This document shows positions 4,699 through 62,651 of a stretch of 64,000 nucleotides of DNA, in pieces; within the stretch, counting starts at the first letter, position 1; every line of letters begins with the position of its first letter. The DNA comes from Deltaproteobacteria bacterium (GTDB taxonomy: Bacteria; Desulfobacterota; JAJRXV01), in NCBI GenBank assembly GCA_024275075.1, contig JAJRZU010000070.1:17234-81233 (forward strand), in the 5' to 3' direction. The notes under the pieces are model-generated. The model did not search any database and was not told where the DNA came from. It saw only the letters and a program-made list of their open reading frames with translations. Made by a program: the position numbers and the translations under genes.

Positions 4699-5742
4699 AT
4701 GGTAAAGAAGTACGAGCTCGTTAAATCAGTCAGGTCTTCTGGGTGAGCAGGTAAACTAGGTCAGGCTGATCTAAACGAGGTGATATCGAAAATGAAGATC
4801 AAAGCGGACAAAAATGTGCTTGCCGCCGTGGATCACTTTGAGGATGCCGGTGTATACAGACTTACCGATGACATTGCGATCGTGCAGTCTGTCGATCTGA
4901 TTACGCCTGTTGTGGACGACCCGTACATCTTCGGGCAGATAGCCGCCGCGAACGCGCTCTCGGATATCTACGCTATGGGCGCGAAACCGGTCACCGCGCT
5001 GAACATCATCGGCGTACCGATCTGCGATTTCGGGGACGAGGTGCTCATAAAGATACACAAAGGCGGGCTGAAGAAGCTTGAGGAGGCGGGCTGCTCCCTG
5101 ATCGGCGGACACACGCTCGATGACCTGGAGCTGAAATACGGGCTTTGCGTCACCGGCACACTACACCCTGACAAGGTGTATTATAACAACAAGGCCGCAA
5201 TCGGGCACGAGATGATCATCACCAAACCCATTGGTAACGGTATTATCACAACCGCCGGTAAAGCGGGTATGGCTGAAGAGGGGGTTATGCAAAAGAGCAT
5301 CGACAGCATGTTGGCGCTTAACAAGGATGCGGGCGAAATAATGAAAAAATATGATGTAAGCGCGTGTACGGACGTAACCGGTTTCGGGCTGCTTGGCCAC
5401 ATGTACGAAGTTGCCCACTCTTCTGATGTCAGCGTCATGGTGGATCATGACAGCGTACCGGTTCTCAGTGGCGCTTATGAATACGCGAGCATGGGGCTTA
5501 TACCCGCGGGCAGTCACTCGAACGAACAGTTCCTAAAAGATCACATCAGCGCGCAAAATTCATTGGGGGAGACATGGCTCTCGATCCTTTGCGACCCCCA
5601 GACCTCGGGCGGGCTCATGATCTTTGTCAATAAAGAGCATTCAAAAAAACTTTTGAAAGATTTGAAGGATAATGGTATAGTAGATGCTCAGCTAATCGGC
5701 AATGTAATACAAAAGAGCGATAAATCCATTATAGTATCGTAA
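4699..5742 (+). CDS. selD: Selenide, water dikinase SelD; selenoprotein with in-frame UGA (Sec) at 4744-4746
   Basis: ATG at 4699 after an AAGGAG ribosome-binding site. Translation reads [21 protein letters not shown]..; the U and K align with Cys17/Lys20 of E. coli SelD (GCGCK). Downstream the sequence is in frame with the track ORF 4780-5742, which carries SelD motifs ([23 protein letters not shown]). Confidence 0.8.
4757..4773 (+). promoter_or_regulatory. Candidate SECIS-like hairpin 10 nt downstream of the selD UGA
   Basis: UAGGUCA-GGC-UGAUCUA: a 7-bp stem (one G-U pair) with a triloop, immediately 3' of the Sec codon. Not matched to the E. coli SECIS consensus. Confidence 0.25.
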
Positions 5743-7343: not shown

Positions 7344-8096
7344 ATGTACAGACGCCGGAAAATAATTTTTAGGATAATTTTACCGCTTATGGCGCTGGCG
7401 CTTTTTTCCACCCTTCTCACCGGCTGCCAGAGCGAAGAGGATAAGAAATTCGATGCGCTTTTGAAAAAACTGCATGACGCGGACGCGAATGACAGGGACC
7501 ATGCTGCGACAGCTCTTGGTGTCTTGAAGGATCCGCGCGCGGTCAGTTTCCTCGCGGATACGGTAATAAGGGACACAGACCCGAAAGTCCGCCTGAGCGC
7601 GGCAACGTAACTGGGCGTGATCGGTGATCCGGCCGCGATCGAGCCGCTCGCGGACGCCTTGAACGATGATGATACGCAGGTGAGGTGGTGGGCGGTCACG
7701 TCTCTTGGGATGATACAAGACCCGCGCGCAGTCAAGCCGCTCTCTGACACGCTGAAAAACGATACAGATACCAATGTAATAAATGCCGCCATCTCCGCTC
7801 TCGGGGTTCTGGGCGACCCGGGCGCGATCGAGCCGCTCACGGCAGCTTTGAAGAGCAGCGACACGAAGATAAAAAGAGGAGCGATCGCCGCTTTGGGGCA
7901 GATAGGGAAACCCGCCCTGGATATTATTATCCGCTCTCTTAACAACGAGGATACTTTTGTCAGGATCAGCGCCGCGTCCTCTCTGGAGCGGATCGGTGAC
8001 CCGCGCGCGAAGGGCCCCCTCACCAAAGCTCTTAACGATACTAACTCGAGCGTGCGGAAGATCGCGAAAAGAGCATTGGAGAAACTTGCTAAATAA
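7344..8096 (+). CDS. HEAT/PBS-lyase repeat lipoprotein, interrupted by in-frame TAA at 7608-7610 (pseudogene or read-through)
   Basis: Lipobox LLTGC. About nine HEAT repeats (xxAAxALGxxxDPRAxxPL). Track ORFs 7344-7610 and 7617-8096 are in the same frame, and the repeat register is continuous across the stop (RLSAAT*LGVIGDP). Confidence 0.6.
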
Positions 8097-9781: not shown

Positions 9782-10420
9782 ATGAAATGCCCTAAATGCG
9801 GTTTTGTCAGCTTCGACAAATTAGAAACATGTAAAAGGTGTAAGCACGTTTTTGCGATAGAAGAACCTGTGCCGAAGCACTCGTTCCTTGCTAAGATGAA
9901 GGATATTTTGAAAAAAGAGGACGAAAAGACCGTCTCGCAAAAAGAGGTTAAAGAGCAGGAACCGGAACCAGCGCCACAAGAAGTAGTGCCCGCACCGAAA
10001 GAAGAGGTATCCGCGGCGCAGGCGAAGGCGGCCGTTGCAACTGCGTCTTTAGTGGATAGTTTTGATGATAAGTTTGACGACCTCTTTGGTGAAGATAAGT
10101 ACGCGGTAAAGGAGAGCGAAAGCGACGCGATAAAATTAACGGCGGTCGACCGGTATACACAGCAGCAAACGAAGCCTGATAATACCGCGGCAAACGGTTA
10201 TAACTTTGATGATTCATTCTTTAAGGTGACCGGCACGTCAGAGGAAGAAGCTGATGAAATGCTTCAGGAAGATAATGTTGAGGAGCCGCTTGTCGAGAAA
10301 AAGGAAGAGGAAAGCGCTTTCAAAGGTGGTCAGGAATTTCACGAGGTATTGTCTGATGATGTAGATGCTGATGACGATCTTATAGATTTTGAAATAGATG
10401 ATGACGAAAAAAAAAACTAA
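9782..10420 (+). CDS. Zinc-ribbon protein (CPKCG..CKRCKH) with acidic low-complexity tail; probably the N-terminal part of a zinc-ribbon-RDD protein
   Basis: N-terminal CxxC..CxxC motif, then a Glu/Asp-rich linker. The gene ends in an A10 run (10407-10416) before TAA. Confidence 0.6.
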   Translation: MKCPKCGFVSFDKLETCKRCKHVFAIEEPVPKHSFLAKMKDILKKEDEKTVSQKEVKEQEPEPAPQEVVPAPKEEVSAAQAKAAVATASLVDSFDDKFDDLFGEDKYAVKESESDAIKLTAVDRYTQQQTKPDNTAANGYNFDDSFFKVTGTSEEEADEMLQEDNVEEPLVEKKEEESAFKGGQEFHEVLSDDVDADDDLIDFEIDDDEKKN

Positions 10421-10422
10421 AC

Positions 10423-10902
10423 GCGCAACTTCGTGACCTGACCGATAAATTAAACGCCTCTGGCAGCCGCGGCGCTTTTATCGCGCAAAGCGCGGTTGCC
10501 GGTAAAAGAATATATGCGTTTATCGTAGATATCTTTTTCATAGTTTTATTAAACGTCTTGATCTTATCAATTGTCGCATCTCTTAACGCAAATGAGCTAT
10601 CCAAGAAGAGCCTTGATATTGAGTTCATATATTTTACTCTCTTCCTGACAACATTTTTGTACCATACTTTATTGCTCTACTTTTTCAAAAGGACATTAGG
10701 CTGCACTATCTTTGACCTTAGCATCGTGAAAGACCATGACGAACCGGTGGGGCTAAAAGATTGCTTTATCAGGTTCTCCGGGTTGCTATTGAACATCATG
10801 ACTCTTTTTATATTCGATATCATAGTGATTATGACCGGTAAGGGGCGCCCATTGCAGGACTCGTTCTCAAATACACGCTTAGTTACAGAACATGACAAAT
10901 AA
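10423..10902 (+). CDS. RDD family membrane domain (no own start codon; in -1 frame relative to upstream zinc-ribbon ORF)
   Basis: RDD signature GKRIYAFIVDIFF in frame 1, beginning right after the A10 tract. No ATG/GTG/TTG lies between the upstream stop and the conserved domain. Confidence 0.55.
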   Translation, partial: AQLRDLTDKLNASGSRGAFIAQSAVAGKRIYAFIVDIFFIVLLNVLILSIVASLNANELSKKSLDIEFIYFTLFLTTFLYHTLLLYFFKRTLGCTIFDLSIVKDHDEPVGLKDCFIRFSGLLLNIMTLFIFDIIVIMTGKGRPLQDSFSNTRLVTEHDK

Positions 10903-15594: not shown

Positions 15595-18573
15595 ATGATA
15601 AATAAAATCGAAGTATCGCTAAAGCCGTTTATAAGGGACGTGCGTGGGGAATCTGTTAGAAACGGGATCTCGAACTATCTTCACGTGGACGTTCAAGATG
15701 TAAGGATAATCGATACTTATATCCTCGAAGGTGACTTCACTGACAAAGAGATCGTCAGTATCGCTTCTAACCCCCTGTTAGACCCTGTAATACAAATGTT
15801 CTCGATCAACAAACCGATAAGCGGGGACTTTGATTTCATCATCATGGTGGGGTTCCTCCCCGGCGTCACCGATAATGTCGGGAGAACCGCGAAGGAAGCT
15901 ATCGGCACCTTTCTGGGCAGGCCTTTCGCAGACGGTGAAGGCGTTTACACCGCGCAACAGTATCTCATAAAAGGGGCGCTTGATTATGATGACGCGAAAA
16001 AGATCGCCCATGACCTTTTGGCCAATGAACTCATACAAAGCTTCCAGGTAATGTCGCAGGCTGACTTTTTGCGTGAGGGCGGCTTTGTGACAACCGCACC
16101 GAAAGTCAGCATCCTGCTTGAGGCGAAGGTGGATGAGATCGACCTGAACATCCCTGACGACGAGCTTGTCAAGTTAAGCAAAGATGGTCTTTTGGCGCTC
16201 TCATTAGATGAGATGAACACGATCAAAGATCACTTCAACGATGATGAGTTCATCTCACAAAGACGAAAGGTCGGCCTGACTTCCCGCATCACCGATGTCG
16301 AGCTTGAATCACTGGCGCAGACATGGTCTGAGCACTGCAAGCATAAGATATTCAACGCTGACATAGACTATACTGATGAACTTGGTATTACCACCAGAAT
16401 CAGCAGTCTTTTTAAAACATATATCGTCAACTCGACGAAGAAGATTCGGCGAAGTAAGGGTAATAACGATTTCTGCCTCTCCGTCTTCAAGGATAACGCC
16501 GGTGTCATCTCGTTTGATGATAACCACAATATCGTACTCAAGGTTGAGACTCACAACAGCCCTTCCGCGCTTGACCCGTACGGCGGCGCCCTTACCGGTA
16601 TCGTCGGCGTCAATCGGGACCCGTTCGGCACCGGTCTCGGCGCGAGGCTGATATTCAACACCGATGTCTTTTGTTTCGCCTCGCCATTTTACGATAAGGA
16701 GCTGCCACCGAAACTGTTGCACCCGCGCAGGATATATGAGGGTGTCGTCACCGGTGTCGAGCATGGCGGTAACAAGAGCGGCATACCGACTGTCAACGGT
16801 ACGGTCGTGTTCAATGAACGGTTCCTTGGGAAACCGCTCGTCTTCTGCGGCACCGGCGGTATTATGCCGAAAACGATCAACGGCAGGCTCTCCCATGAGA
16901 AGAGAGCGAATGCCGGTGACCTCATCGTCATGACCGGCGGCAGGATCGGTAAGGACGGCATCCACGGCGCGACATTCTCCTCTGAGGAGCTACACGAAGG
17001 CTCACCGGTGACGGCAGTGCAGATAGGCGACCCGATAACGCAAAAGAAGATGACGGACTTTCTGCTCATAGCGAGGGATCTTGGGCTCTACAGCTCGATC
17101 ACAGATAACGGCGCTGGCGGGCTCTCGTCATCCGTCGGTGAGATGGCCGAAGACTGCGGCGGGTGCCGGCTTCACCTTGACAAAGCGCCCCTGAAGTACA
17201 GCGGGCTCCAGCCATGGGAGATACTCGTCTCCGAGGCGCAGGAACGGATGACGCTCGCGGTGCCCAAGGAAAACATCGAGCGGTTCATGGAGCTGGCGAA
17301 GACTATGGATACTCAGGCCACCGTTTTAGGGGAGTTCACCGACACCGGTATCTTCCACATCCTGTATGAGGATAAAACGGTCGCGTACTTAGAGATGGAG
17401 TTCCTGCATCACGGCCTGCCCCCGATGAACCTGACGGCGAAGTTTGAGACGCCGCGTCACACCGAACCTGACCTGCCCGATTAGGTAGACATAAAGGATA
17501 CTCTTCTCAAGCTGATGAGATCATTAAATATTTGCAGTAAGGAATCGATCGTGAGGCGGTATGACCACGAGGTGCAGGGCGGCAGTGTCATAAAGCCGTT
17601 TGTCGGCGCAACGAACGACGGGCCGTCAGACGCCGCTGTTTTGCGGCCTCTCCTTGAATCGTTCAAAGGGATAGTCGTCTCGAACGGGATATGCCCGGAG
17701 TACAGCGACATAGATACGTATCACATGGCGGCGTGCGCGATCGACGAGGCGGTACGAAACGCTGTCTGCGTGGGCGGCGATATCGAGCACATGGCGGGGC
17801 TTGACAACTTCTGCTGGTGCGACCCGATAAAGAGCGACAGGAACCCGGACGGCGAATACAAACTCGCGCAGCTCGTCAGGGCGAACAAAGCGCTCTACGA
17901 TTACTGCACGGCCTACGGAATACCCTGCATCTCAGGGAAAGACAGCATGAAGAACGATTACATAATGGGCAGCTTGAAGATATCGATACCACCGACCCTG
18001 CTGTATACAGTGTTTGCCACGATCGATGACGTCAGAAGAGCCGTGACGATGGATTTCAAAGCAGCGGGCGACTGCATATACATCCTGGGCATCACAAAGG
18101 ATGAGCTCGGCGGCGGCGAATACTATAACCTGCTTTGCGCTACGGGCAACACAGTACCGAAAGTCGATGCGAACGCGGCCTACCACCGCTACAAAGCGGT
18201 ACTGGCCGCGATGAAAGAAGGGATTATCCGCTCATGCCACGACGCGTCCGACGGCGGGATCGGTGTGGCTATCACCGAATCCGCATTCTCTGGCGGGTTC
18301 GGGGCAAAGATCGACCTGACAAAAGTGCCTTGCGGCGATATCACAAGGGATGATATAATACTGTTCTCAGAATCGCAAAGCCGCCTGATCGTCTCAGTCA
18401 GCCCCAAAGATGAAAAGCGGTTCAGGTAGATCATGAGCGCGGATGCCTATGCCCGGATCGGAACTGTAACAGACAAAAAAGAGCTGATAATCAAAAGATT
18501 GGACAAAAGCAACGTGACTATCGATATAGATACATTAAAAAAAGCATGGCAAAAGCCGCTAAAGGGGTTATAA
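15595..18573 (+). CDS. purL: Fused PurS-PurL phosphoribosylformylglycinamidine synthase, interrupted by two in-frame TAG codons (17482-17484, 18427-18429)
   Basis: The N-terminal ~80 aa resemble PurS (VSLKPFIRDVRGESV..VQDVRI). PurL AIR-synthase domains run in one frame across both TAGs (..EPDLPD*VDIKD..NICSKESIVRRYDHEVQG..; ..EKRFR*IMSADAYARIGTVTDK..LKKAWQKPL). True stop TAA at 18571-18573. Confidence 0.8.
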
Positions 18574-18593
18574 AAAGACTTAACCACAGAGTA

Positions 18594-18703
18594 CACGGAG
18601 TGCAACGCAACAATAACATGAACAAAAACGTTGCGTTGCGTTTCGCTTAACAGCAACCTACTCGGCTGTGATAGAAAACTCTCTGTGACCTCTGTGGTGA
18701 AAG
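18594..18703 (+). other. Structured intergenic element between purL and purQ (nested inverted repeats)
   Basis: CCACAGAG (18594-18601) pairs with CTCTGTGG (18685-18692). There is also a perfect 10-bp inverted repeat, GCAACGCAAC (18602-18611) and GTTGCGTTGC (18630-18639). The element contains one copy of the 33-nt repeat. Confidence 0.4.
18629..18661 (+). repeat. 33-nt repeat, copy A (cgttgcgttgcgtttcgcttaacagcaacctac)
   Basis: Matches the reverse complement of 36572-36604 at 32 of 33 positions. Confidence 0.55.
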
Positions 18704-18735
18704 AGCTATTTGTGGTTCTGAAAGAAGGTAACGAA

Positions 18736-19572
18736 ATGCCGGTAAAGACAAAGGCGGCGGTAATAACAGGTTATGGTGTCAATTGCGAGCGTGAGATGGC
18801 TCATGCCTGCGCGTTGGCCGGTTTTGATATCGTTGACATAATACATATCAGCGAGCTGTTGAGCTTTGCGAAGGATATCAACGGGTACCATTTCCTGAAC
18901 TTCGCCGGCGGCTTCTTAGACGGTGATGATCTGGGCAGCGCGAAGGCCTGCGTGAACCGGTTCAAGTACGCCGTACCTTCTGGCGGCGGTGAGAAGATAG
19001 TCGATCAGATCCAGCGGTTCATCTCGGATAAGAAGCTGATTCTGGGTATATGCAACGGTTTTCAGCTCATGGTGAAGTTCGGTATCCTGCCGGGCTTTGA
19101 CGGCAGTTACATTGACCAGTCGGCTACATTGACGTTCAACGATTCCGCGCGTTTTGAGGATAGGTGGGTCTATCTCAAGATCAACGACAGCTAGCCATGC
19201 GTCTTCACAAAGGGCGCAAAAGGAGTATACCTGCCAATCCGGCACGGTGAGGGGAAGTTCATCTCAAACGATGATGAGACCCATAATAGGATCATCAGTA
19301 ATAACCTTAACGCTATCATGTACAGTGACAGCGATTATGTCGCGACGGACGTACCGTATCCGATGAACCCGAACGGCTCGAAGGCTGGAATCGCGGGTAT
19401 CTGCGATCCAAGCGGCAGGCTTTTTGGCATGATGCCGCACCCCGAAGCCTACCTGCACTACACGAACCATCCGCGCTGGACCCGCGAGAAGATGCCCGAA
19501 GAGGGGCAGGGTCTTTTATTCTTTAAGAACGCACATAAATATGTGAAGGAGCGCCTGACCGAAAATGCATGA
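18736..19572 (+). CDS. purQ: Phosphoribosylformylglycinamidine synthase glutaminase subunit PurQ, interrupted by in-frame TAG at 19192-19194
   Basis: Class I glutamine amidotransferase ([14 protein letters not shown]). Homology continues in the same frame after the TAG (..[34 protein letters not shown]..). Confidence 0.8.
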
Positions 19573-23908: not shown

Positions 23909-23925
23909 AATTATAGGAGCGAGAT

Positions 23926-24078
23926 ATGGTCAAATGCCCGGAATGCGGGGAGATAGTAGAGTTGATCGACGGTATGGAGACAGGTGAGATCATCGAGTGC
24001 GGTAACTGCGGCGTTGAGCTGGAGATAACCTCCTTGACGCCTGTAAAACTGGAAATATTCGAAGAAGAAGAAAAGTAA
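23926..24078 (+). CDS. LysW-like zinc-ribbon amino-group carrier protein (50 aa; absent from ORF track because under 60 aa)
   Basis: MVKCPECGEIVELIDGMETGEIIECGNCGVELEITSLTPVKLEIFEEEEK. CxxC..CxxC ribbon plus an acidic EEEEK C-terminus, as in LysW/ArgW. Confidence 0.5.
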   Translation: MVKCPECGEIVELIDGMETGEIIECGNCGVELEITSLTPVKLEIFEEEEK

Positions 24079-29159: not shown

Positions 29160-29771
29160 TTACTTCATTTTTACGTCATCCATGTCCATATCTTTGTCAT
29201 CGCCATCAGGCATCATAGCCCCTGAGCCCATCATCTGTCGCATCATCTTCTTCCTGCCTTTACCCATACCCTCTTTCATCTGCATCATTTTTTGTTTCAT
29301 AAGCTGTTGCATCTTTAAAAACTGCTCATCAGTCAGAAGCTCCTTAACTTACTTGTGCGTCTTCAGGCACTCTAATTTCATCTGTACCTTAGTATCATAA
29401 AAATCCCTCAGCTTCCCCTCGATCGCATCTAAGTCCATATTGTCTTTGCTCATCAGCTCATCTAACTCAAGCTGCTTTATGTCACTTTGTGCCTTTAATG
29501 TTATCTTCTTCTTCTTGTGTTCGTAGTGAAGAGCATTGAATTTTTTTAGCTGATCATCAGAAAGGCCTAATTTTTCGGCGTTTTTTTTGCACATATCCGG
29601 GTTGTGCATACCGCTCATCATACTCATCATACCACCGGACATCATCGACTTTCCACCCATCATACCTTGTTCACCTTTGGATTCGCAGCATTTCTTGCCC
29701 GCGGCGGCATAAGTCACCGGCAGGCTGATCGCGGCGAGTAATACCGTTATTACAAATAATTTTTTTAGCAT
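29160..29771 (-). CDS. Spy/CpxP/ZraP-family periplasmic Met-rich metal-binding chaperone, interrupted by in-frame TAA at 29349-29351
   Basis: Signal peptide MLKKLFVITVLLAAISLPVTYAAAG; Met-rich stretch MMGGKSMMSGGMMSMMSGM. First LTXXQ motif (LSDDQ) lies before the TAA. A second LTXXQ (LTDEQFLKMQQLMKQKMMQM) and a Met-rich tail continue in frame after it, to TAA at 29160-29162. Lies upstream of copA on the same strand. Confidence 0.6.
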
Positions 29772-30155
29772 AGCCATTACCCCCTTAGCGTTATTTGATA
29801 CTACATTTATAATAATAATCACACTTTTAAATATAATGTCAAGACAAATTGTTCAAACTATATAGATGCAAGCCCCGCGCTTTCCCCTTAGTTTGCATAC
29901 CTGCCCGATAGAAGAGCAATATACATACCAGTAGGGGTAAATGTATGTAATATATTTATATGATTAGTTATTTTGTGTTTGTAAGAAATTCCATGTTCCA
30001 TTATATTTGCATGATTTGATTATGCCGCGGCAAAAAGCGTAGGATATGCTACAATCGATTTCATTATAAAATCCTTATAAAAATAGATAATTAAAACATT
30101 TTAATGTTATTTTAATTTTCATTTAATTTTGATCTGGTACATTTCATAGCATATT

Positions 30156-36571: not shown

Positions 36572-36604
36572 GTAGGTTGCTGTTAAGCGAAGCGCAACGC
36601 AACG
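36572..36604 (-). repeat. 33-nt repeat, copy B (inverted relative to copy A at 18629-18661)
   Basis: The reverse complement, cgttgcgttgcgcttcgcttaacagcaacctac, differs from copy A by one substitution. Located in the batA-batB intergenic region. Confidence 0.55.
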
Positions 36605-42590: not shown

Positions 42591-43043
42591 CTAAATTTTA
42601 CGCCGCAAAGCTCTTTGAAGCTCCCTGTCCGAGTCCTTTTTCTTTATCGCTTCCCGCTTGTCGTAAAACTTCTTACCCTTGGCAAGCGCTATCTCAAGCT
42701 TACACCTGCCCCGCTTGAAATAGAGCCGAAGCGGAACTAATGTCAGACCCTTCTCCTGTACCTTGCCGATAAGTTTCTTTATCTGAGCTTTATGCAGTAA
42801 AAGCTTACGGGTACGGCGCGGCTCATGGTTGAACCGGTTCGCAAAAGCGTACGGGCTGATGTGCATATTATAAATATACACCTCGCCATTATCTATCCTG
42901 CCAAAAGATTCTTTCAGGTTCGCTTTGCCCTGCCGGAGCGACTTCACCTCCGAACCCTTCAGGACAACACCCGCCTCAAAAGTCTCTATGATAAAATATT
43001 CATATCGCGCCTTCTTGTTCTGCGCTATTAACTTTTAACTCAT
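42591..43043 (-). CDS. smpB: SsrA-binding protein SmpB, with in-frame TAA at codon 3 (43035-43037)
   Basis: Reads [65 protein letters not shown]. The start resembles B. subtilis SmpB; the only ATG is two codons before the TAA. The track ORF starts at an internal Met. Confidence 0.75.
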
Positions 43044-45849: not shown

Positions 45850-46635
45850 ATGGAGAACGTTTTTTACAGCACAACCGATTTCAATTCCCGCTATAAAGTG
45901 AAGCTGAGCGCTTTTGAGGGTCCGCTGGATCTTTTACTCTACCTTATCAAGAAGAACAAGGTGGATATCTATGACATCCCCATAGCGGTGATAACCGAGC
46001 AGTACCTCGAATATATCAAGAAGATGAAGGAGCTTAATTTAGACCTTGCCGGTGAGTACCTGCTCATGGCGGCGACGCTGACGTACATCAAATCGCGGAT
46101 GCTGTTGCCGGTGGAGGAAGAGGAGGACGAGTTTGGTGAGGAACCAGAAGACCCCCGCGCCGAGCTTGTCAGGAAGCTCCTTGACTACCAGCGCTACAAG
46201 GGCGCGTCAGAGTACTTTACCAGGTGCAGCATGTTAGAGCGGGATGTATTCCCATGCGGGCGGTATGAAGCAGAGGAGCTCAAGAAAGAGATAACGGGCA
46301 GCGGCGATTTCGACGTATCCATCTTCCAGCTTATCAAGGCTATCTCATCGATCATCAAAGAATCAAAGGAGAAGATCGTTCACGAGGTAACGGCGGAAAA
46401 GCTCACGTTAAAGGACAAAATAAACGAGCTGACCTTAAAGTTGAATAATGAGGAGATGTTCCTGTTCAAGGCGCTGTTTGAGGGCGCCGCGGGGAGGCAT
46501 GAGATCATAGTGACCTTTCTGGCGCTTTTAGAGCTTATCAAGCTGAACGTGGTGAAGGTCGTACAGGTAAGCAGGTTCGGCCCGATACGGATCATGTCGC
46601 TGATTTACAATTCTTCTCAAGGAGGGGACGCATAG
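45850..46635 (+). CDS. scpA: Segregation and condensation protein A
   Basis: ScpA kleisin N- and C-terminal domains (FEGPLDLLLYLIKKNKVDIYDIPIAVIT). Confidence 0.9.
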   Translation: MENVFYSTTDFNSRYKVKLSAFEGPLDLLLYLIKKNKVDIYDIPIAVITEQYLEYIKKMKELNLDLAGEYLLMAATLTYIKSRMLLPVEEEEDEFGEEPEDPRAELVRKLLDYQRYKGASEYFTRCSMLERDVFPCGRYEAEELKKEITGSGDFDVSIFQLIKAISSIIKESKEKIVHEVTAEKLTLKDKINELTLKLNNEEMFLFKALFEGAAGRHEIIVTFLALLELIKLNVVKVVQVSRFGPIRIMSLIYNSSQGGDA

Positions 46636-54878: not shown

Positions 54879-55853
54879 CTATACCATCCAGCATCGCGCG
54901 TAATGCCCCGCTTCGACCTCTTTAAAGGGGGGCGGATCATCGCATATCTTTTTCTTCAATGGGCATCTGGTCTTAAAAAGACAGCCCCCGGGCAGGTTCA
55001 AAAGGTGCGGTACTACTCCAGCGATCGCGTTCAGCCGACCCTTCTTCTTCTCGTCATGTTCAGCATCACTGATCGAGGGCAGCGATTGCAAAAGCCCTGT
55101 CGTGTACGGATGCCTCGGCGTTGACAGCACCTTCCTGACCGTAGAATATTCAACGATCTTACCGGCATACATGACCGCCACGTTATCGGTGTTTTCAGCG
55201 ACTATCCCAAGATCGTGCGTGATCAACAGCACAGCCATCCCCAGCTTCTGCTTCAGGTCATTTATCAGCTCGAGTATCTGCGCCTCGATAGTGACGTCCA
55301 GGGCTGTAGTCGGTTCGTCCGCGATCAGAAGTGACGGGCTACATGAGAGCGCTATCGCTATCATCACGCGCTGACGCATCCCACCAGAGAGCTGGTTCGG
55401 GTAATCGTTTATCCTGCGCTTGGCGGCAGGGATACCGACCAGCCTAAGCATATCGACCGCGCGGTCATACGCTTCCTTCTTACTGATATCAAGGTGCACC
55501 CGCATCGCCTCGGTGATCTGGTCACCCACAGTGAATACCGGGTTAAGCGACGTCATCGGTTCCTGGAATATCATCGATATCTTATCCCCGCGGATATTCC
55601 GTATCTCCTCATCGCTTGACCGCAATATATCCTTGCCATTAAAAACGATCTCGCCACCGGCTATCTCGCCCGGCGGCTGGATGAGCCGCATGATCGACAG
55701 AGCCGTCACACTCTTGCCACACCCTGACTCACCGACAAGGCCGAAGGAATCACCCCTCTTGATCGAGAAGCTGATATCATCTACAGCCTTTGCGATGCCG
55801 GCGCTCAAGTTGAAATATGTCTTTAAGTTCTTGACATCTAATAAGTTTTCCAT
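54879..55853 (-). CDS. oppD: Oligopeptide/dipeptide ABC transporter ATP-binding protein (OppD/DppD-like)
   Basis: Walker A GESGCGKS, signature LSGGMRQRV and a C-terminal Cys-containing extension. Confidence 0.85.
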
Positions 55854-55874: not shown

Positions 55875-57695
55875 CTATTGGTACTCATCCGCCCCGATAT
55901 CGTAACCGGCGCCCTGTGGTCTTGCGTTACCGTCGATATCGTCGGACGGCGCGCCCCCGCTCGCAGCGGTATCGATACACGGGGAGCCGGCGGTCAGGTG
56001 ATAATCGCCGCCACCGACAAACAGCGGATCGGCGTCTATGTTCCCCATGCCGGTGTATCCGCCCTGTACATCGGAGTATGTGATACTTATCGTAGCGTTT
56101 CCGCTCAGTAGATAGACCTCGCTATCGCTGTAGTTCGCAAAATTCCCCCACATGATGCTGTTCAAGACGACAGGGCCTGTTGAGCAGGCGATCCCGCCAC
56201 CAAAATCGGATGTGTTGCCGCTTATAGTACAATTTGTGATACTCGGTGTTGATGACGTGCTGTGTATCGCACCGCCATATTGAGACGCTGTGTTGTTCAC
56301 TATGATCGAGTTTGTCAGCTTAAGAGAGGAGAAAACGCAGCCGATACCGCCACCGTACCAGCCAGCCGTGTTATCGCTGATGGTGCAGTTTGTAATCACC
56401 GGCGATGACGATGAAAGGCAGTATATCCCGCCACCGGTGATGTTCGCGGCATTACCGGTTATGACACAGTTCGTTATTGTCGGGGATGAGCTGTCCTTGC
56501 AGTATATCCCGCTGCCATAATCAGAGGCTCCGTTGGTGATGGTAAACCCGTCAAGCACGGAATCGTTACCCTCACCAGAATCGAATTTGACTACCATGCC
56601 CGCCGCGCCGCCATCGATTATGGTTTTTGCCGCACCGCTCGCGGATTGGATCGTGATCGCCTTACCAGAATAATCTATGTTTTCAACGTAAGTGCCGTCG
56701 TAAACGATTACAGTGTCTCCGTTCACTGACGCGTTGATAGCCGCCTGGATAGTAGGGTAATCCCACGGCACCTGGTGGCATATCTCATCTATCAGGCCGT
56801 CGCAGTCCTGATCGACGCCATCTCCGCAAAGCTCCGCCGCGCCCGGGTAGCTTGCCGCGTCGGTGTCATTACAATCAGTATTGTCAACGACATACCCTTC
56901 CTGGGGTGTTATGCTGGAGATAGTGCTGTTCGGGTCGCCGTAACCGTCACCGTCGGCATCCAGGTAATATGTAGTCGGTGGTGTGACCTGATCGGCGCCG
57001 TCACAGTCCTGGTCGATACCGTCGTCGGCGATTTCCGCTGCCCCAGGATATATCGCCGCGTCTGTGTCATCGCAATCGGTATTGTCCGTCAGGTACCCGT
57101 CGGGCTGAGTTGTGTCTATTACCAGTGTTGAGGGGTCGCCGTAACCGTCACCGTCGTAATCATAATAGTAGTAATTCATCTGGATACCGTCACAATTCTG
57201 GTCGATACCATCGCCGGGCACCTCACCGGCGCCCGGGTATACATTTGCGTCTGTATCGTCGCAATCGGTATTGTCCGTAACATAACCCTCGGGCTGGACA
57301 GTCTCTGATACCGATTCGTCAGGGTTCCCGTAACCGTCACCGTCAGAATCCATATAGTAAGTGTTCAGGTGCAGGTCTGTACCGTTGCAATCCTGGTCGA
57401 TACCGTCGTCAGGCACCTCTGTGGCGCCCGGATATATCGTAGCGTCATCGTCGTTGCAATCACCCATATCTGCTTCGAAGACGTCACCATCGACATCGTT
57501 CGGATTTATAACGGTGTCATCACCACCGTCACCGGTGTCTGTGCCGCCATCGCCTGTGTCACCGGTGTCAACTTCCCCATCTGATGTCGCTACGCCGCTG
57601 TCATAGTTGACGGAACTGTCACAACCTGACAAAAACAGGAATAGTACCAAAGTAACCGCGAATATAGCGGCGACGTTTCTATATAAATGCCTCAT
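55875..57695 (-). CDS. Lipoprotein with four MopE-like putative metal-binding repeats and a right-handed parallel beta-helix domain
   Basis: Lipobox LSGCD. Four repeats of about 45 aa (DCDDTDAxIYPGAxEVPDDGIDQDCDG..DGDGYG), then NosD/pectate-lyase-like beta-helix repeats (ITNCTISGNT..GGGI). Confidence 0.7.
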   Translation of the reverse strand: MRHLYRNVAAIFAVTLVLFLFLSGCDSSVNYDSGVATSDGEVDTGDTGDGGTDTGDGGDDTVINPNDVDGDVFEADMGDCNDDDATIYPGATEVPDDGIDQDCNGTDLHLNTYYMDSDGDGYGNPDESVSETVQPEGYVTDNTDCDDTDANVYPGAGEVPGDGIDQNCDGIQMNYYYYDYDGDGYGDPSTLVIDTTQPDGYLTDNTDCDDTDAAIYPGAAEIADDGIDQDCDGADQVTPPTTYYLDADGDGYGDPNSTISSITPQEGYVVDNTDCNDTDAASYPGAAELCGDGVDQDCDGLIDEICHQVPWDYPTIQAAINASVNGDTVIVYDGTYVENIDYSGKAITIQSASGAAKTIIDGGAAGMVVKFDSGEGNDSVLDGFTITNGASDYGSGIYCKDSSSPTITNCVITGNAANITGGGIYCLSSSSPVITNCTISDNTAGWYGGGIGCVFSSLKLTNSIIVNNTASQYGGAIHSTSSTPSITNCTISGNTSDFGGGIACSTGPVVLNSIMWGNFANYSDSEVYLLSGNATISITYSDVQGGYTGMGNIDADPLFVGGGDYHLTAGSPCIDTAASGGAPSDDIDGNARPQGAGYDIGADEYQ

Positions 57696-57923: not shown

Positions 57924-59111
57924 ATGAAACAACGAGTAATAAAACACTATTTTATTCTGGCTGTTATTCTTGGGTTGGCATCAAGTGCCTTCGCTAAAAC
58001 ATGCTATGAGTGCCACAAAGATGAGAAAAAGAGCTTTAAAAAGAAGTTTGTACACAGCCCTGTATAAGATGAGAGCTGTGATGATTGTCACAATGAGCAT
58101 GAAGAAGGGAAGCCTAAAAAGCTGTCGCTGGTAGCAAAAGATAATGACTTATGCGTAGATTGCCACGACGACATCGCCGACAAAAAACACATTCACAGCG
58201 CGATAGCCGACGGCCTTTGTATAGACTGCCATGACCCTCATGCCTCTGACAATAAGAACCGGCTGATCGCTTCAGGTAACGATCTGTGCTTTGAGTGCCA
58301 CGACGATATCGCGGACAAAAAACATGTCCACAGCGCGATAGCCGACGGGGATTGTATCGACTGCCACAGCCCGCACTCGACGGATAACGCGAAGCAGCTG
58401 ATCGCTTCAGGTAACGATCTGTGCTTTGAGTGCCACGACGATATCGCGGACAAAAAACATGTCCACAGCGCGATAGCCGACGGGGATTGTATCGACTGCC
58501 ACAGCCCGCACTCGACAGATAACGCGAAGCAGCTGATCGCTTCAGGTAACGATCTGTGCTATGAGTGCCACGACAGCAAGGAGGAACAGCGTCATGTTCA
58601 CCCTGCAATTACCGACGGGGAGTGTATCGACTGCCACAGTCCGCACTCTACGGAGAATCAGTTCCAGCTCATAGCTAACTACACTTTAAAACGATATGTT
58701 GCATTTTCACCAGAAGAGTATGCTTTATGCTTTGAGTGCCACGAGGAGTCATTAATTACGACAGAATTCGTAGTCAATAATGAGACTAACTTTAGAGATG
58801 GCGCAAAAAACCTTCATTTTATACACGTCAGAGGTAAGACAGTTGTCGATAAGTATGGCTTGAAGAGAAAGCCCAAAAAAGGCAGGGCATGTTTTGGTTG
58901 CCACATGAGTCATCAATCTGACCAGAACTTCATGCTTCTAAATGAACTTACCGCTGGTAAAATATTAGTTTATTCGCTGACATATACGCAAATAAAGACG
59001 GATGAACAAGATGGCGGCAGGTGCGTTGTCGGTTGCCACAATCCAAGGCAGTATGACCGCGGCAAGAAAGAAGAGAGGGTAGAAGAAATATCCAGTGCAC
59101 CGGCTCCGTAG
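57924..59111 (+). CDS. Multiheme c-type cytochrome (~13 CxxCH), interrupted by in-frame TAA at 58065-58067
   Basis: Signal peptide MKQRVIKHYFILAVILGLASSAFA, then CYECH..VHSPV*DESCDDCH..; about 13 CxxCH motifs in one frame to TAG at 59109-59111. Largely missing from the ORF track because the segment after the TAA has no in-frame start codon. Confidence 0.75.
58262..58537 (+). repeat. 138-bp tandem duplication (x2, one silent difference) encoding a di-heme module
   Basis: The unit encodes LIASGNDLCFECHDDIADKKHVHSAIADGDCIDCHSPHSTDNAKQ and is flanked by diverged copies. This coding repeat explains the spurious antisense ORF 58114-58608. Confidence 0.7.
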
Positions 59112-61004: not shown

Positions 61005-62651
61005 ATGCTCGAAAAACTTATCTTTGGTCTGATCGGTGGACTCGGGATGTTCTTGTTTGGTATGAAGATTATGTCCGAAGGTTTGCAGAAGATCTCTGGT
61101 GACAGGATCAGAAGAACATTAGAGGCATTGACAACTAACAGGATAATGGGCTTACTCGTCGGGCTGGTTGTCACATCGATCATTCAAAGTAGCAGCGCTA
61201 CTACCGTTATGGTAGTCGGGTTCGTCAACGCCGGTCTGATGACGCTTGCTCAATCGATCGGGGTCATTTTAGGCGCGAATATCGGTACCACCATCACTGC
61301 CCAGATGATCGCATTCAAAGTGCACCATTACGCCCTGCCAATCTTAGGTATCGGTGTTTTCCTCAAGACATTTTCATCAAGTAAGCGATGGACATACATC
61401 GGGGAGGCAATGTTAGGTTTCGGGCTCATCTTTTATGGACTCGTTGTCATGAAAGGAGCTTTTGCGCCGCTAAAGACAAATCAGGCATTCATCAGTTATT
61501 TCACTCTATTCGGTGATAATCCCATTATAGGGGTATTGGTTGGGGCGGCATTGACTCTTGTCGTTCAGAGTAGCAGCGCGACAATCGGTATCACCATGAC
61601 GCTCGCTTCCTCTGGCCTGCTCAGCTTTTATGCCGCTGTTGCGCTCATTCTCGGAGAAAATATCGGTACTACGATCACCGCGAATCTGGCAAGCATCGGT
61701 ACTAATACGAACGCGAAGAGGGCGGCGAGGGCGCACCTGCTCTTTAATCTTATCGGTACCTTATACATGCTGATGATCCTGCCGTATTTCGTAACTTTTA
61801 TTGATTATATCACACCAAACAGCGCAGACTTTGTAAACGCGATTAATGAAAAACCCTTTATCGGCAGGCATATCGCTAACGCGCATTCATTGTTTAACGT
61901 ACTGAACGTACTCATATTTCTGCCATTTACCGGTTACTTAGCAAAAGCCGCTTCATTTATGGTGCCGCAAAAAGAGGGTGAGGAGGTAGAGTACGCGCTA
62001 AAATATCTGGATAACAAATTATTAAACACACCGGTCATCGCGATAAGTGAGGCGCGTAAATAAGTCGTGCGTATGGCGGAGATATCTCTTTCCATGTATA
62101 ATAATTCCATTGAATTCATTATGAATAATGATATGAAATTATTAAAGAAAATAACGAAAAAAGAGGGGATTGTCGATCTGCTGCAAAAAGATATTACAAA
62201 TTTCTTAGTGGAGATTTCACAGCAATCGATAACAAAGGATATCTCTAAAGAGATCGCGTCCTTACTTCACATGGTAAATGATTTAGAACGGATAGGCGAT
62301 CATTGCGAGAATCTCGCGAAACTGACTGAAAAGATAATCGATGGCAAGATAAAGATATCTGAAGGCGCGCTTGAAGAATTAAAGGATATTTCAGGCATTA
62401 CAAGGGAATTCATAGAGAGTACGGTAAAGGTTATCGGTGCGAAGAACAAGAAGTTCTTGCAAAACGCGCGCTACTTTGAGTCCCGTATCGATAAATTAGA
62501 GGATAATTATCGGGAGAACCACATAAAGCGGCTGAACGAGGGGCGGTGCAAAGTCACTGCCGGTCTGATCTATGTTGATATGCTCGCCAATTTCGAGAAG
62601 CTTGGCGACCATACATACAACATCGCGGAGGCTATCGCCGGTATCAAATAA
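61005..62651 (+). CDS. Na+/phosphate cotransporter (NptA family) fused to PhoU-like domains, interrupted by in-frame TAA at 62061-62063
   Basis: Na_Pi_cotrans repeats (QSSSATTVMVVGFVNAG.., QSSSATIGITMTLASSG..). After ..ISEARK*, same-frame PhoU-like helices follow (track ORF 62067-62651). This matches the usual single-polypeptide NptA-PhoU architecture. Confidence 0.75.

Follow-up and report, generated by a model that had tools for sequence, protein, structure and literature searches.

The three in-frame TAG codons of purSL and purQ in this contig are probably ordinary single-base premature stops, part of a scatter that runs along the whole contig, and not recoded sense codons. Across the window (the entire 64-kb stretch of DNA analysed here) we counted six robust and two likely in-frame TAA or TAG codons, no TGA and one homopolymer frameshift (Table 1), a mix that is unusual among bacterial pseudogenes and among long-read errors alike. 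If the sequence is read as written, a ribosome halting at codon 630 of purSL would leave out the second AIRS half, and one halting at codon 153 of purQ would leave out the triad His and Glu of the glutaminase. This would make FGAM synthetase inactive, with the adjoining purC, purF and purH intact.

Translated in a single frame, positions 15595–19572 contain the three TAG codons, the TAA at the true end of purSL, a TGA in the spacer (18619–18621) and the TGA that ends purQ. The first-pass annotation had placed three TAGs in purSL and purQ within about 1.7 kb of one another, and they are indeed there, with no error of frame or coordinates. It had also described the PurL and PurQ domains as conserved and co-linear across these codons, which agrees with our alignments, as PDB chains and homologs run through every site. 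The purSL product matched PDB PurL with an E value of 2.7e-73, and chains of both PurL and large PurL align through the TAGs; the purQ product matched the glutaminase domain of large PurL (E 1e-30). The best 119 full-length PurSL homologs (992–1018 aa) share the architecture PF02700+PF18072+PF00586+PF02769 and align without gaps at both TAG sites, and the purSL C-terminus ('WQKPLKGL*', terminator TAA) matches the position of the conserved C-terminus of its relatives. No natural domain or gene break was found at the TAG positions among the 119 PurSL and 69 PurQ homologs. The fusion of purS to purL, singled out earlier as noteworthy, turned out to be unremarkable: PurS, linker and AIRS are present in 119/119 of the best full-length matches and, judging from these sequences, the fusion is the norm for this clade.

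The three closest relatives (L001, L002 and L003) are 75–80% identical at the amino acid level and keep the gene order of the window, purC-MCP-purSL-purQ-purF-mutL; PurQ is 78–80% identical to that of L001 and L002. The relatives found in a GTDB scan were all at or below 66% identity. All three closest relatives have sense codons at the three TAG sites, namely CCG/TCT/TTT at TAG 1, GAG/AAT/GAT at TAG 2 and TCG/TCC at TAG 3, so that the change in purQ can be reconstructed as a one-step TCG>TAG. No in-gene stops were found in 31 kb of these three relatives. They also lack the spacer between the two genes, purQ beginning 1–2 nt past purSL. Separately, 33 nt of this spacer are found again, inverted, at 36572–36604.

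The interrupted products can be recognized in public data. A 629-aa protein (P0035), which corresponds to purSL cut at TAG 1, is present in an NCBI-derived protein set on an 82.8-kb contig, and at least TAG 1 therefore belongs to the deposited record; its cluster at 90% has one member. The 352-aa product of the Na/Pi-cotransporter-PhoU gene cut at its TAA (P0128) comes from the same NCBI contig.

Table 1. Genes, in-frame stops and other features discussed in the text (window coordinates; an asterisk within a peptide marks the stop).
Feature	Position	Strand	Details
TAA in HEAT-repeat lipoprotein gene (7344–8096)	7608–7610	+	'VRLSAAT*LGVIGDP'
A10 homopolymer frameshift	10407–10416	+	Zn-ribbon ORF (9782–10420) into RDD-domain ORF (10405–10902)
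purSL (fused PurS-PurL, FGAM synthetase large component)	15595–18573	+	992 codons; true stop TAA 18571–18573
TAG 1, in-frame	17482–17484	+	purSL codon 630; variable linker preceding second AIRS half
TAG 2, in-frame	18427–18429	+	purSL codon 945; true end 47 codons further
purSL-purQ spacer	18574–18735	+	162 nt; nested inverted repeats
purQ (glutaminase subunit, GATase_5 type)	18736–19572	+	278 codons; stop TGA 19570–19572
TAG 3, in-frame	19192–19194	+	purQ codon 153; catalytic Cys (GICNGFQ) before, triad His/Glu (MPHPE) after
TAA, possible, in Spy/CpxP-like periplasmic protein gene (29160–29822)	29349–29351	-	motif evidence
TAA, probable, in smpB (42591–43043)	43035–43037	-	codon 3; 'ATG AGT TAA AAG TTA ATA GCG'
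TAA in multihaem cytochrome c gene (57924–59111)	58065–58067	+	'FVHSPV*DESCDDCH'
TAA in Na/Pi-cotransporter-PhoU gene (61005–62651)	62061–62063	+	homologs uninterrupted

Several unrelated genes of the window are affected in the same way. The stop of the HEAT-repeat lipoprotein falls at residue 89, where the Pfam domains HEAT_PBS (82–108) and HEAT_2 (37–117) cross it; the sole signal peptide and lipobox lie 5' of the stop, and the residue expected at the site is Ala or Ser. A search of representatives for this protein returned giant repeat proteins only and no orthologs. In the multihaem cytochrome, Cytochrome_C7 (24–82) and Cytochrom_CIII (24–81) cross the stop at residue 48, and four of the best-scoring homologs (P0241, P0242, P0243 and P0248) have K/E/E/D at that position. 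For the Na/Pi-cotransporter-PhoU gene, 119/119 homologs are single proteins of 534–566 aa carrying both domains; as the stop column is Glu in every one of them, the change amounts to a one-step GAA>TAA. An in-frame TAA probably interrupts smpB as well, since position 1 of the Pfam SmpB model lies three residues past it with no ATG, GTG or TTG between. Another possibly interrupts the Spy/CpxP-like gene, in which a second 'LLTDEQ' motif (LTxxQ-type) lies 3' of the TAA and the Metal_resist match is weak (E 9e-4, under the cutoff). Synteny was not kept in a batA-centred metagenome scan for orthologs of these last two genes. As for the frameshift, one additional A in the A10 run would fuse the Zn-ribbon and RDD ORFs; the RDD domain begins at residue 30 of its stop-to-stop segment, 5' of the first start codon of that segment.

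A reassigned stop codon no longer acts as a terminator and lines up with a single amino acid. Whole-genome reassignments are known for UGA (to Trp or Gly in some bacteria), and recoding of UAG is known in phages. The stops described here resemble these cases in lying within conserved genes and differ from them in that TAA and TAG still terminate genes and align to differing residues. The two codons end some 80% of the window genes at conserved ends (purSL, MCP, ScpA/ScpB, OppD/OppF), TAA making up about half of all terminators and TAG about a quarter; about 13 other genes (MCP, ScpA, ScpB, OppD and others) end normally in TAG. There was no enrichment of back-up TGA codons either, the median distance from a TAA/TAG end to the next TGA (57.5 codons) being at chance level. 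Genome-wide reassignment of TAG, or of TAA and TAG, with TGA as the sole stop is thus excluded by the conserved terminators and by the absence of TGA back-up.

Nor do the alignments name a single residue. In the 119 PurSL homologs the TAG 1 column holds P72/K35/S3/R3/A3 plus others and the TAG 2 column A40/E22/S20/R13/K10 plus others, while the TAG 3 column is Ser in 68/69 PurQ homologs and Thr in 1/69. The idea that one amino acid is read at all three sites is contradicted by these columns (P/K/S, A/E/S/R/K and Ser, respectively). A model with Ser at every site, through a tRNA-Ser(UGA>UUA), was consistent with purQ, with HEAT and with the variable columns of purSL; it is excluded by the Glu of Na/Pi and the E/K of the cytochrome, and Glu-only decoding is excluded by the Ser of purQ. 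Two suppressors (TAG as Ser, TAA as Glu) would clash with the A/S position of HEAT and over-fit eight sites. RNA editing and codon skipping were set aside, since the sites align as substitutions and not as inserted codons.

The special status of amber implied by the first-pass annotation is not supported by the rest of the window, in which other genes carry in-frame TAA, in one case in place of an invariant Glu, and both codons are ordinary terminators. An expansion of the code specific to amber, by pyrrolysine or another TAG-only decoding, is accordingly very improbable. It would account for three TAGs in 1.7 kb, in an organism whose selD already has a UGA recoded as Sec, and Sec and Pyl have been described together in marine Deltaproteobacteria (PMC8318568). 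As in Methanosarcina and in those bacteria, in-frame UAG occurs here within conserved genes of a Sec-using Desulfobacterota-like bacterium. Against this stand the affected UAA codons, the frequent use of UAG as a terminator, and the conserved Ser at TAG 3, which is not Lys-like. Known bacterial Pyl sites are methyltransferase active sites (PMC8318568), whereas the sites in PurSL and PurQ are at non-equivalent positions of other enzymes. Among the annotated genes of the window (Pfam) we found no pylT, pylS, pylBCD or methylamine methyltransferase; ARAGORN predicted no tRNA genes in the 64 kb, and there was no match to Rfam families. No SECIS- or PYLIS-like structures were found at the stops. 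Folding of the 80 nt past each TAG against shuffled sequences gave z = +1.0, +0.8 and -1.2 with no common fold, compared with z = -2.0 for the context of the selD UGA. A search for a methylation motif or shared context at the stops gave only a chance 'AGGTAGA' common to sites 1 and 2. That all three pur stops are TAG has P ~0.11, since single-step changes in these genes yield TAG more often than any other stop. Their grouping is also not significant once the remaining stops of the window are counted, three of eight sites falling within 1.7 kb with P ~0.10.

Natural nonsense suppression is a minority rival. Natural nonsense-suppressor tRNAs include those of the E. coli supD/supE type. Under this explanation the organism would have a suppressor tRNA, such as one of ochre type whose UUA anticodon reads UAA and UAG and not UGA; frequent read-through would make in-frame TAA and TAG nearly neutral and allow them to become fixed by drift, and most genes would still end at these codons. 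Such a tRNA would account for eight stops that are all TAA or TAG with no TGA, the codon that serves Sec in selD, for interrupted genes that are otherwise intact and conserved, and for the involvement of important genes (purSL, purQ, smpB) with frameshifts almost absent. Natural suppressor tRNAs are documented in bacteria, including allo-tRNAs that read UAA and the deltaproteobacterial opal-suppressing selC* tRNA-Cys (PMC5389517). With a suppressor tRNA, in-frame UAA/UAG would be tolerable while ending other genes. We nevertheless consider this explanation unlikely. No one inserted residue fits the Ser of purQ, the Glu of Na/Pi, the E/K of the cytochrome and the A/S of HEAT, so that the expected residues clash with one tRNA identity. 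Two of the six robust sites fall in nearly invariant columns, a pattern that differs from that of codons sifted by selection; about a third of sites struck in such columns is what random placement gives. If ochre suppression were efficient, its cost would be very high with TAA and TAG as the main terminators and no enrichment of back-up stops, and weak suppression would yield almost no PurSL, for which two read-throughs are needed. Moreover, the window is without a suppressor tRNA and the relatives without in-gene stops in their 31 kb. To our knowledge, an ambiguous dual-use state of UAA and UAG has not been described for bacteria, and that a free-living Desulfobacterota-like bacterium tolerates these codons in housekeeping genes such as purSL, purQ, smpB and those of a phosphate transporter and a cytochrome by way of an ochre-type suppressor tRNA, and still relies chiefly on them for termination, seems quite doubtful.

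The stops could also be new subunit boundaries, with re-initiation producing a multi-piece FGAM synthetase. An ATG (18433) does lie one codon past TAG 2 with an AGG 7 nt upstream, and TAG 1, which falls within a variable linker, is followed by an ATG after 10 codons. Functional splitting of this sort is nonetheless most improbable: the purQ TAG is followed by 41 codons, and the cytochrome TAA by 264, without an in-frame start, the downstream part of the cytochrome would be without a signal peptide, and 0 of 119 PurSL, 69 PurQ and 119 Na/Pi homologs are split there.

Premature stops would be expected to leave traces of decay, and the fully selected look of the interrupted genes counts against reading them as such. 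We saw no sign of relaxed selection in the stop-bearing genes, whether as raised dN, lost invariant residues or further disruptions. PurSL keeps 288/288 family-invariant residues and PurQ 76/77, the dN of the window branch equals that of the intact relatives, and conserved columns show private changes no more often than they do in the relatives. The stop events must then be very recent or absent from the organism. Considering the stop-bearing genes alone, neutral decay has P 0.002–0.05, and under a uniform mutation spectrum some 10 additional changes at conserved sites would be expected, which are not seen (P ~0.01). With a load model corrected for picking genes by their stops (G:C>T:A only, 8 stops per ~18,000 codons), about 5 extra conserved-column missense changes are predicted in four genes against an observed excess of 0–2, which is compatible (P ~0.1). 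The absence of TGA among the eight stops has P ~0.2. The argument that nonsense-only changes must be selected or translated is weakened by this ascertainment correction to the window-wide rate.

Each of the two reconstructable changes, in purQ and in the Na/Pi gene, is a one-step G:C>T:A transversion, the type of change that guanine oxidation leaves behind, be it in the cell or in the library prepared for sequencing. The remaining stops appear compatible with the same class, an assignment that is certain at these two sites only. Taking the premature stops as the preferred reading, we lean slightly, on the sequence evidence, towards a consensus error of the assembly as their origin over very recent real nonsense mutations, because about 13% of genes are broken, smpB among them, with no relaxed selection. 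A free-living bacterium would be heavily burdened by such a fraction of broken genes.

These genes resemble the nonsense-mutation pseudogenes or 'internal stop' genes of bacterial genomes and MAGs in that a single-base stop interrupts an otherwise co-linear ORF and is absent in relatives, that several unrelated genes are affected and that a homopolymer frameshift is near. They differ from the usual ones in the lack of relaxed selection, in three stops within one operon, in the restriction to TAA and TAG, and in a ratio of stops to frameshifts (8:1) that is higher than usual. As matters stand, the finding mainly amounts to a data-quality or pseudogene flag. For this genome, gene callers will give shortened versions of PurSL, PurQ, the Na/Pi transporter, the cytochrome and others, and de novo purine synthesis would be scored as broken, rightly or wrongly, in metabolic reconstructions. 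A cluster of stops of the same type should be weighed against the entire contig before recoding is invoked. The finding would be important only if the stops were real and accompanied by a suppressor tRNA or by full-length proteins, as it would then reveal a bacterium living with ambiguous UAA and UAG codons.

Three in-frame TAG codons interrupt purSL and purQ, which encode the large component of FGAM synthetase (a fusion of PurS and PurL) and its glutaminase subunit, as the first-pass annotation had proposed. This was confirmed by alignments of solved PurL and large-PurL structures, which continue across the stops, and by 119 full-length PurSL homologs (992–1018 aa) that likewise aligned through them. 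An NCBI-derived protein collection lists the truncated 629-aa product that ends at the first TAG (P0035), with an 82.8-kb contig as its source, so this stop belongs to the deposited record. P0035 is the sole member of its 90% cluster, and the best full-length PurSL match has 77% identity. The PurS-PurL fusion, also flagged earlier as noteworthy, turned out to be common to all best homologs, including those of Geobacter, Desulfuromonas, Trichloromonas and Syntrophales. Downstream, purF overlaps the end of purQ.

Features of the purSL-purQ locus, in-frame stops and other elements in the window
Feature	Position	Strand	Remarks
purSL	15595-18573	+	992 codons, TAA end
TAG 1	17482	+	purSL codon 630; relatives CCG/TCT/TTT; family column P72, K35, S3, R3, A3 and others
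TAG 2	18427	+	purSL codon 945; relatives GAG/AAT/GAT; family column A40, E22, S20, R13, K10 and others
purSL-purQ spacer	18574-18735	+	162 nt
Spacer core	18629-18661		33 nt; inverted copy at 36572-36604
purQ	18736-19572	+	TGA end
TAG 3	19192	+	purQ codon 153; relatives TCG/TCC; family column Ser in 68/69
selD	4699-5742	+	selenophosphate synthetase; in-frame TGA 4744-4746 in SSG-U-AGKL motif
TAA	7608	+	HEAT-repeat lipoprotein gene; HEAT_PBS and HEAT_2 matches bridge stop; robust
Zn-ribbon and RDD ORFs	9782-10902	+	different frames
A10 run	10407-10416	+	frameshift in Zn-ribbon/RDD gene
LysW-like gene	23917-24075	+	53 aa
TAA	29349-29351	-	Spy-like gene, ahead of second LTxxQ motif; possible
TAA	43035-43037	-	smpB codon 3; probable
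TAA	58065	+	multihaem cytochrome, 47 codons past signal-peptide start; robust
Cytochrome tandem units	58290-58533	+	~123 nt each
TAA	62061	+	splits Na/Pi-cotransporter-PhoU gene; robust

The three closest metagenomic relatives (PurSL identity 75–76%, PurQ 78–80%) carry these genes without interruption. Two of them share the gene order purC-MCP-purSL-purQ-purF(-mutL-miaA), and the third covers only the upstream gene and purSL. The idea that all three TAGs decode to one common amino acid fails within the operon, because the relatives' codons and the family columns differ between sites, being variable in purSL and nearly always Ser in purQ. The purSL-purQ spacer is an insertion compared with the relatives, whose purQ begins 1–2 nt past purSL. 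It contains nested inverted repeats (MFE -53 kcal/mol), its core recurs at 97% identity in another intergenic spacer, and it resembles either a small repeat of REP/MITE-like type or an attenuator; it had no Rfam match.

The reading of the three TAGs is changed by TAA codons outside the pur operon, which bring the in-frame stops to six robust and two likely cases in ~55 genes, with expected residues that are Ser, Glu, Glu/Lys, Ala/Ser or variable. All 119 Na/Pi-cotransporter-PhoU homologs are single proteins (534–566 aa) with an invariant Glu at the stop column, and a truncated product (352 aa) again exists in the NCBI-derived set. In the cytochrome, orthologs have K/E/E/D at the TAA position and cytochrome domains bridge the stop. 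Split genes with re-initiation downstream fail as an explanation for purQ and for the cytochrome, in which 264 codons follow the TAA without an in-frame start. In smpB, no canonical start lies between the TAA and the conserved N-terminus. The cytochrome gene also contains near-identical tandem units that differ by one G/A, and each unit codes for a paired CXXCH module. At the A10 run the Zn-ribbon and RDD-domain ORFs overlap, and one added A would join them as the usual Zn-ribbon-RDD protein; a sequencing indel, a genuine frameshift and a site prone to slippage are all possible readings. The LysW-like gene, for a zinc-ribbon carrier protein, is followed directly by an NlpC/P60 gene and one of Mur-ligase-like type.

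Reassignment of TAG was ruled out, as TAG terminates ~13 other genes in the window. One of these encodes the immediately upstream chemotaxis receptor, whose C-terminus matches that of the ortholog from a relative (L003) to the residue; TAG also closes the genes for ScpA, ScpB, a secreted MopE-motif protein and an OppD-like ATPase. Three pairs of same-frame neighbours are each separated by a single TAG (ScpA|ScpB at 46633, OppD-like|OppF-like at 54881, MopE-motif|OppD-like at 55877); Pfam coverage identifies them as complete and truly separate genes, which a naive read-through scan would fuse. The purSL TAA coincides exactly with the family C-terminus, and beyond TAA/TAG-ended genes the next in-frame TGA lies at chance distance (median 57.5 codons). 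Amber recoding is thus not supported, with TAG a normal terminator and in-frame TAA elsewhere in the window. Pyl-type amber decoding (PMC8318568) is contradicted by the in-frame TAA cases and by the types of site; no pyl or methylamine-methyltransferase genes were found among annotated window products, nor any tRNA or Rfam family in the window, and the 80 nt past each TAG folded no better than shuffled sequence. The only in-frame TGA in the window is the selenocysteine codon of selD, so the organism employs Sec/UGA recoding; the fold of the 80 nt downstream of it beats shuffles (z = -2.0).

The interrupted genes show no decay. The window branch has the same dN as that measured between the intact relatives, in every segment on either side of the stops; family-invariant residues are kept (PurSL 288/288, PurQ 76/77), and window-private changes at conserved columns of PurSL, PurQ, Na/Pi and PurF are as frequent as in the relatives. 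Natural suppression by a tRNA reading UAA/UAG, of a kind documented elsewhere (PMC5389517), would account for this selected look and for the restriction of the stops to TAA and TAG, but we consider it improbable: the sites fit no single tRNA identity, two of the six robust ones fall in near-invariant columns, and ~80% of genes terminate with TAA or TAG without back-up stops. Gene-by-gene tests seemed incompatible with unselective mutation (P 0.002 to 0.05), values that are biased because the genes were picked for carrying stops. With the test corrected to the window-wide rate (8 stops per ~18,000 codons), the four genes should carry ~5 extra conserved-site changes under a G:C>T:A-only process and ~10 under a uniform one; the observed excess of 0–2 is compatible with the former (P ~0.1) and marginal for the latter (P ~0.01). 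Chance probabilities are ~0.10 for three of eight stops inside 1.7 kb, ~0.11 for TAG at each of the three pur stops (TAG makes up 48% of the one-step stops there) and ~0.2 for zero TGA among eight.

The two fixed-residue sites, purQ (TCG>TAG) and Na/Pi (GAA>TAA), each require exactly one G:C>T:A transversion, and the others are compatible with it (GAG>TAG at purSL 945, GAA or AAA>TAA in the cytochrome). Such changes are the classical result of oxidised guanine, whether in cells deficient in GO repair or in sequencing libraries that have been oxidised, and from this established knowledge we would attribute them to that source. The three TAGs are probably ordinary premature stops. They either arose by very recent nonsense mutation or are errors in the consensus of a metagenome-assembled contig, and we lean slightly towards consensus error. 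Taken as written, the sequence would leave PurSL without its second half and PurQ without two catalytic-triad residues, His and Glu, as the purQ TAG falls between the GICNGFQ and MPHPE motifs. The explanation is an ordinary one, and the finding is of low interest unless the stops hold up in read data and a suppressor exists.
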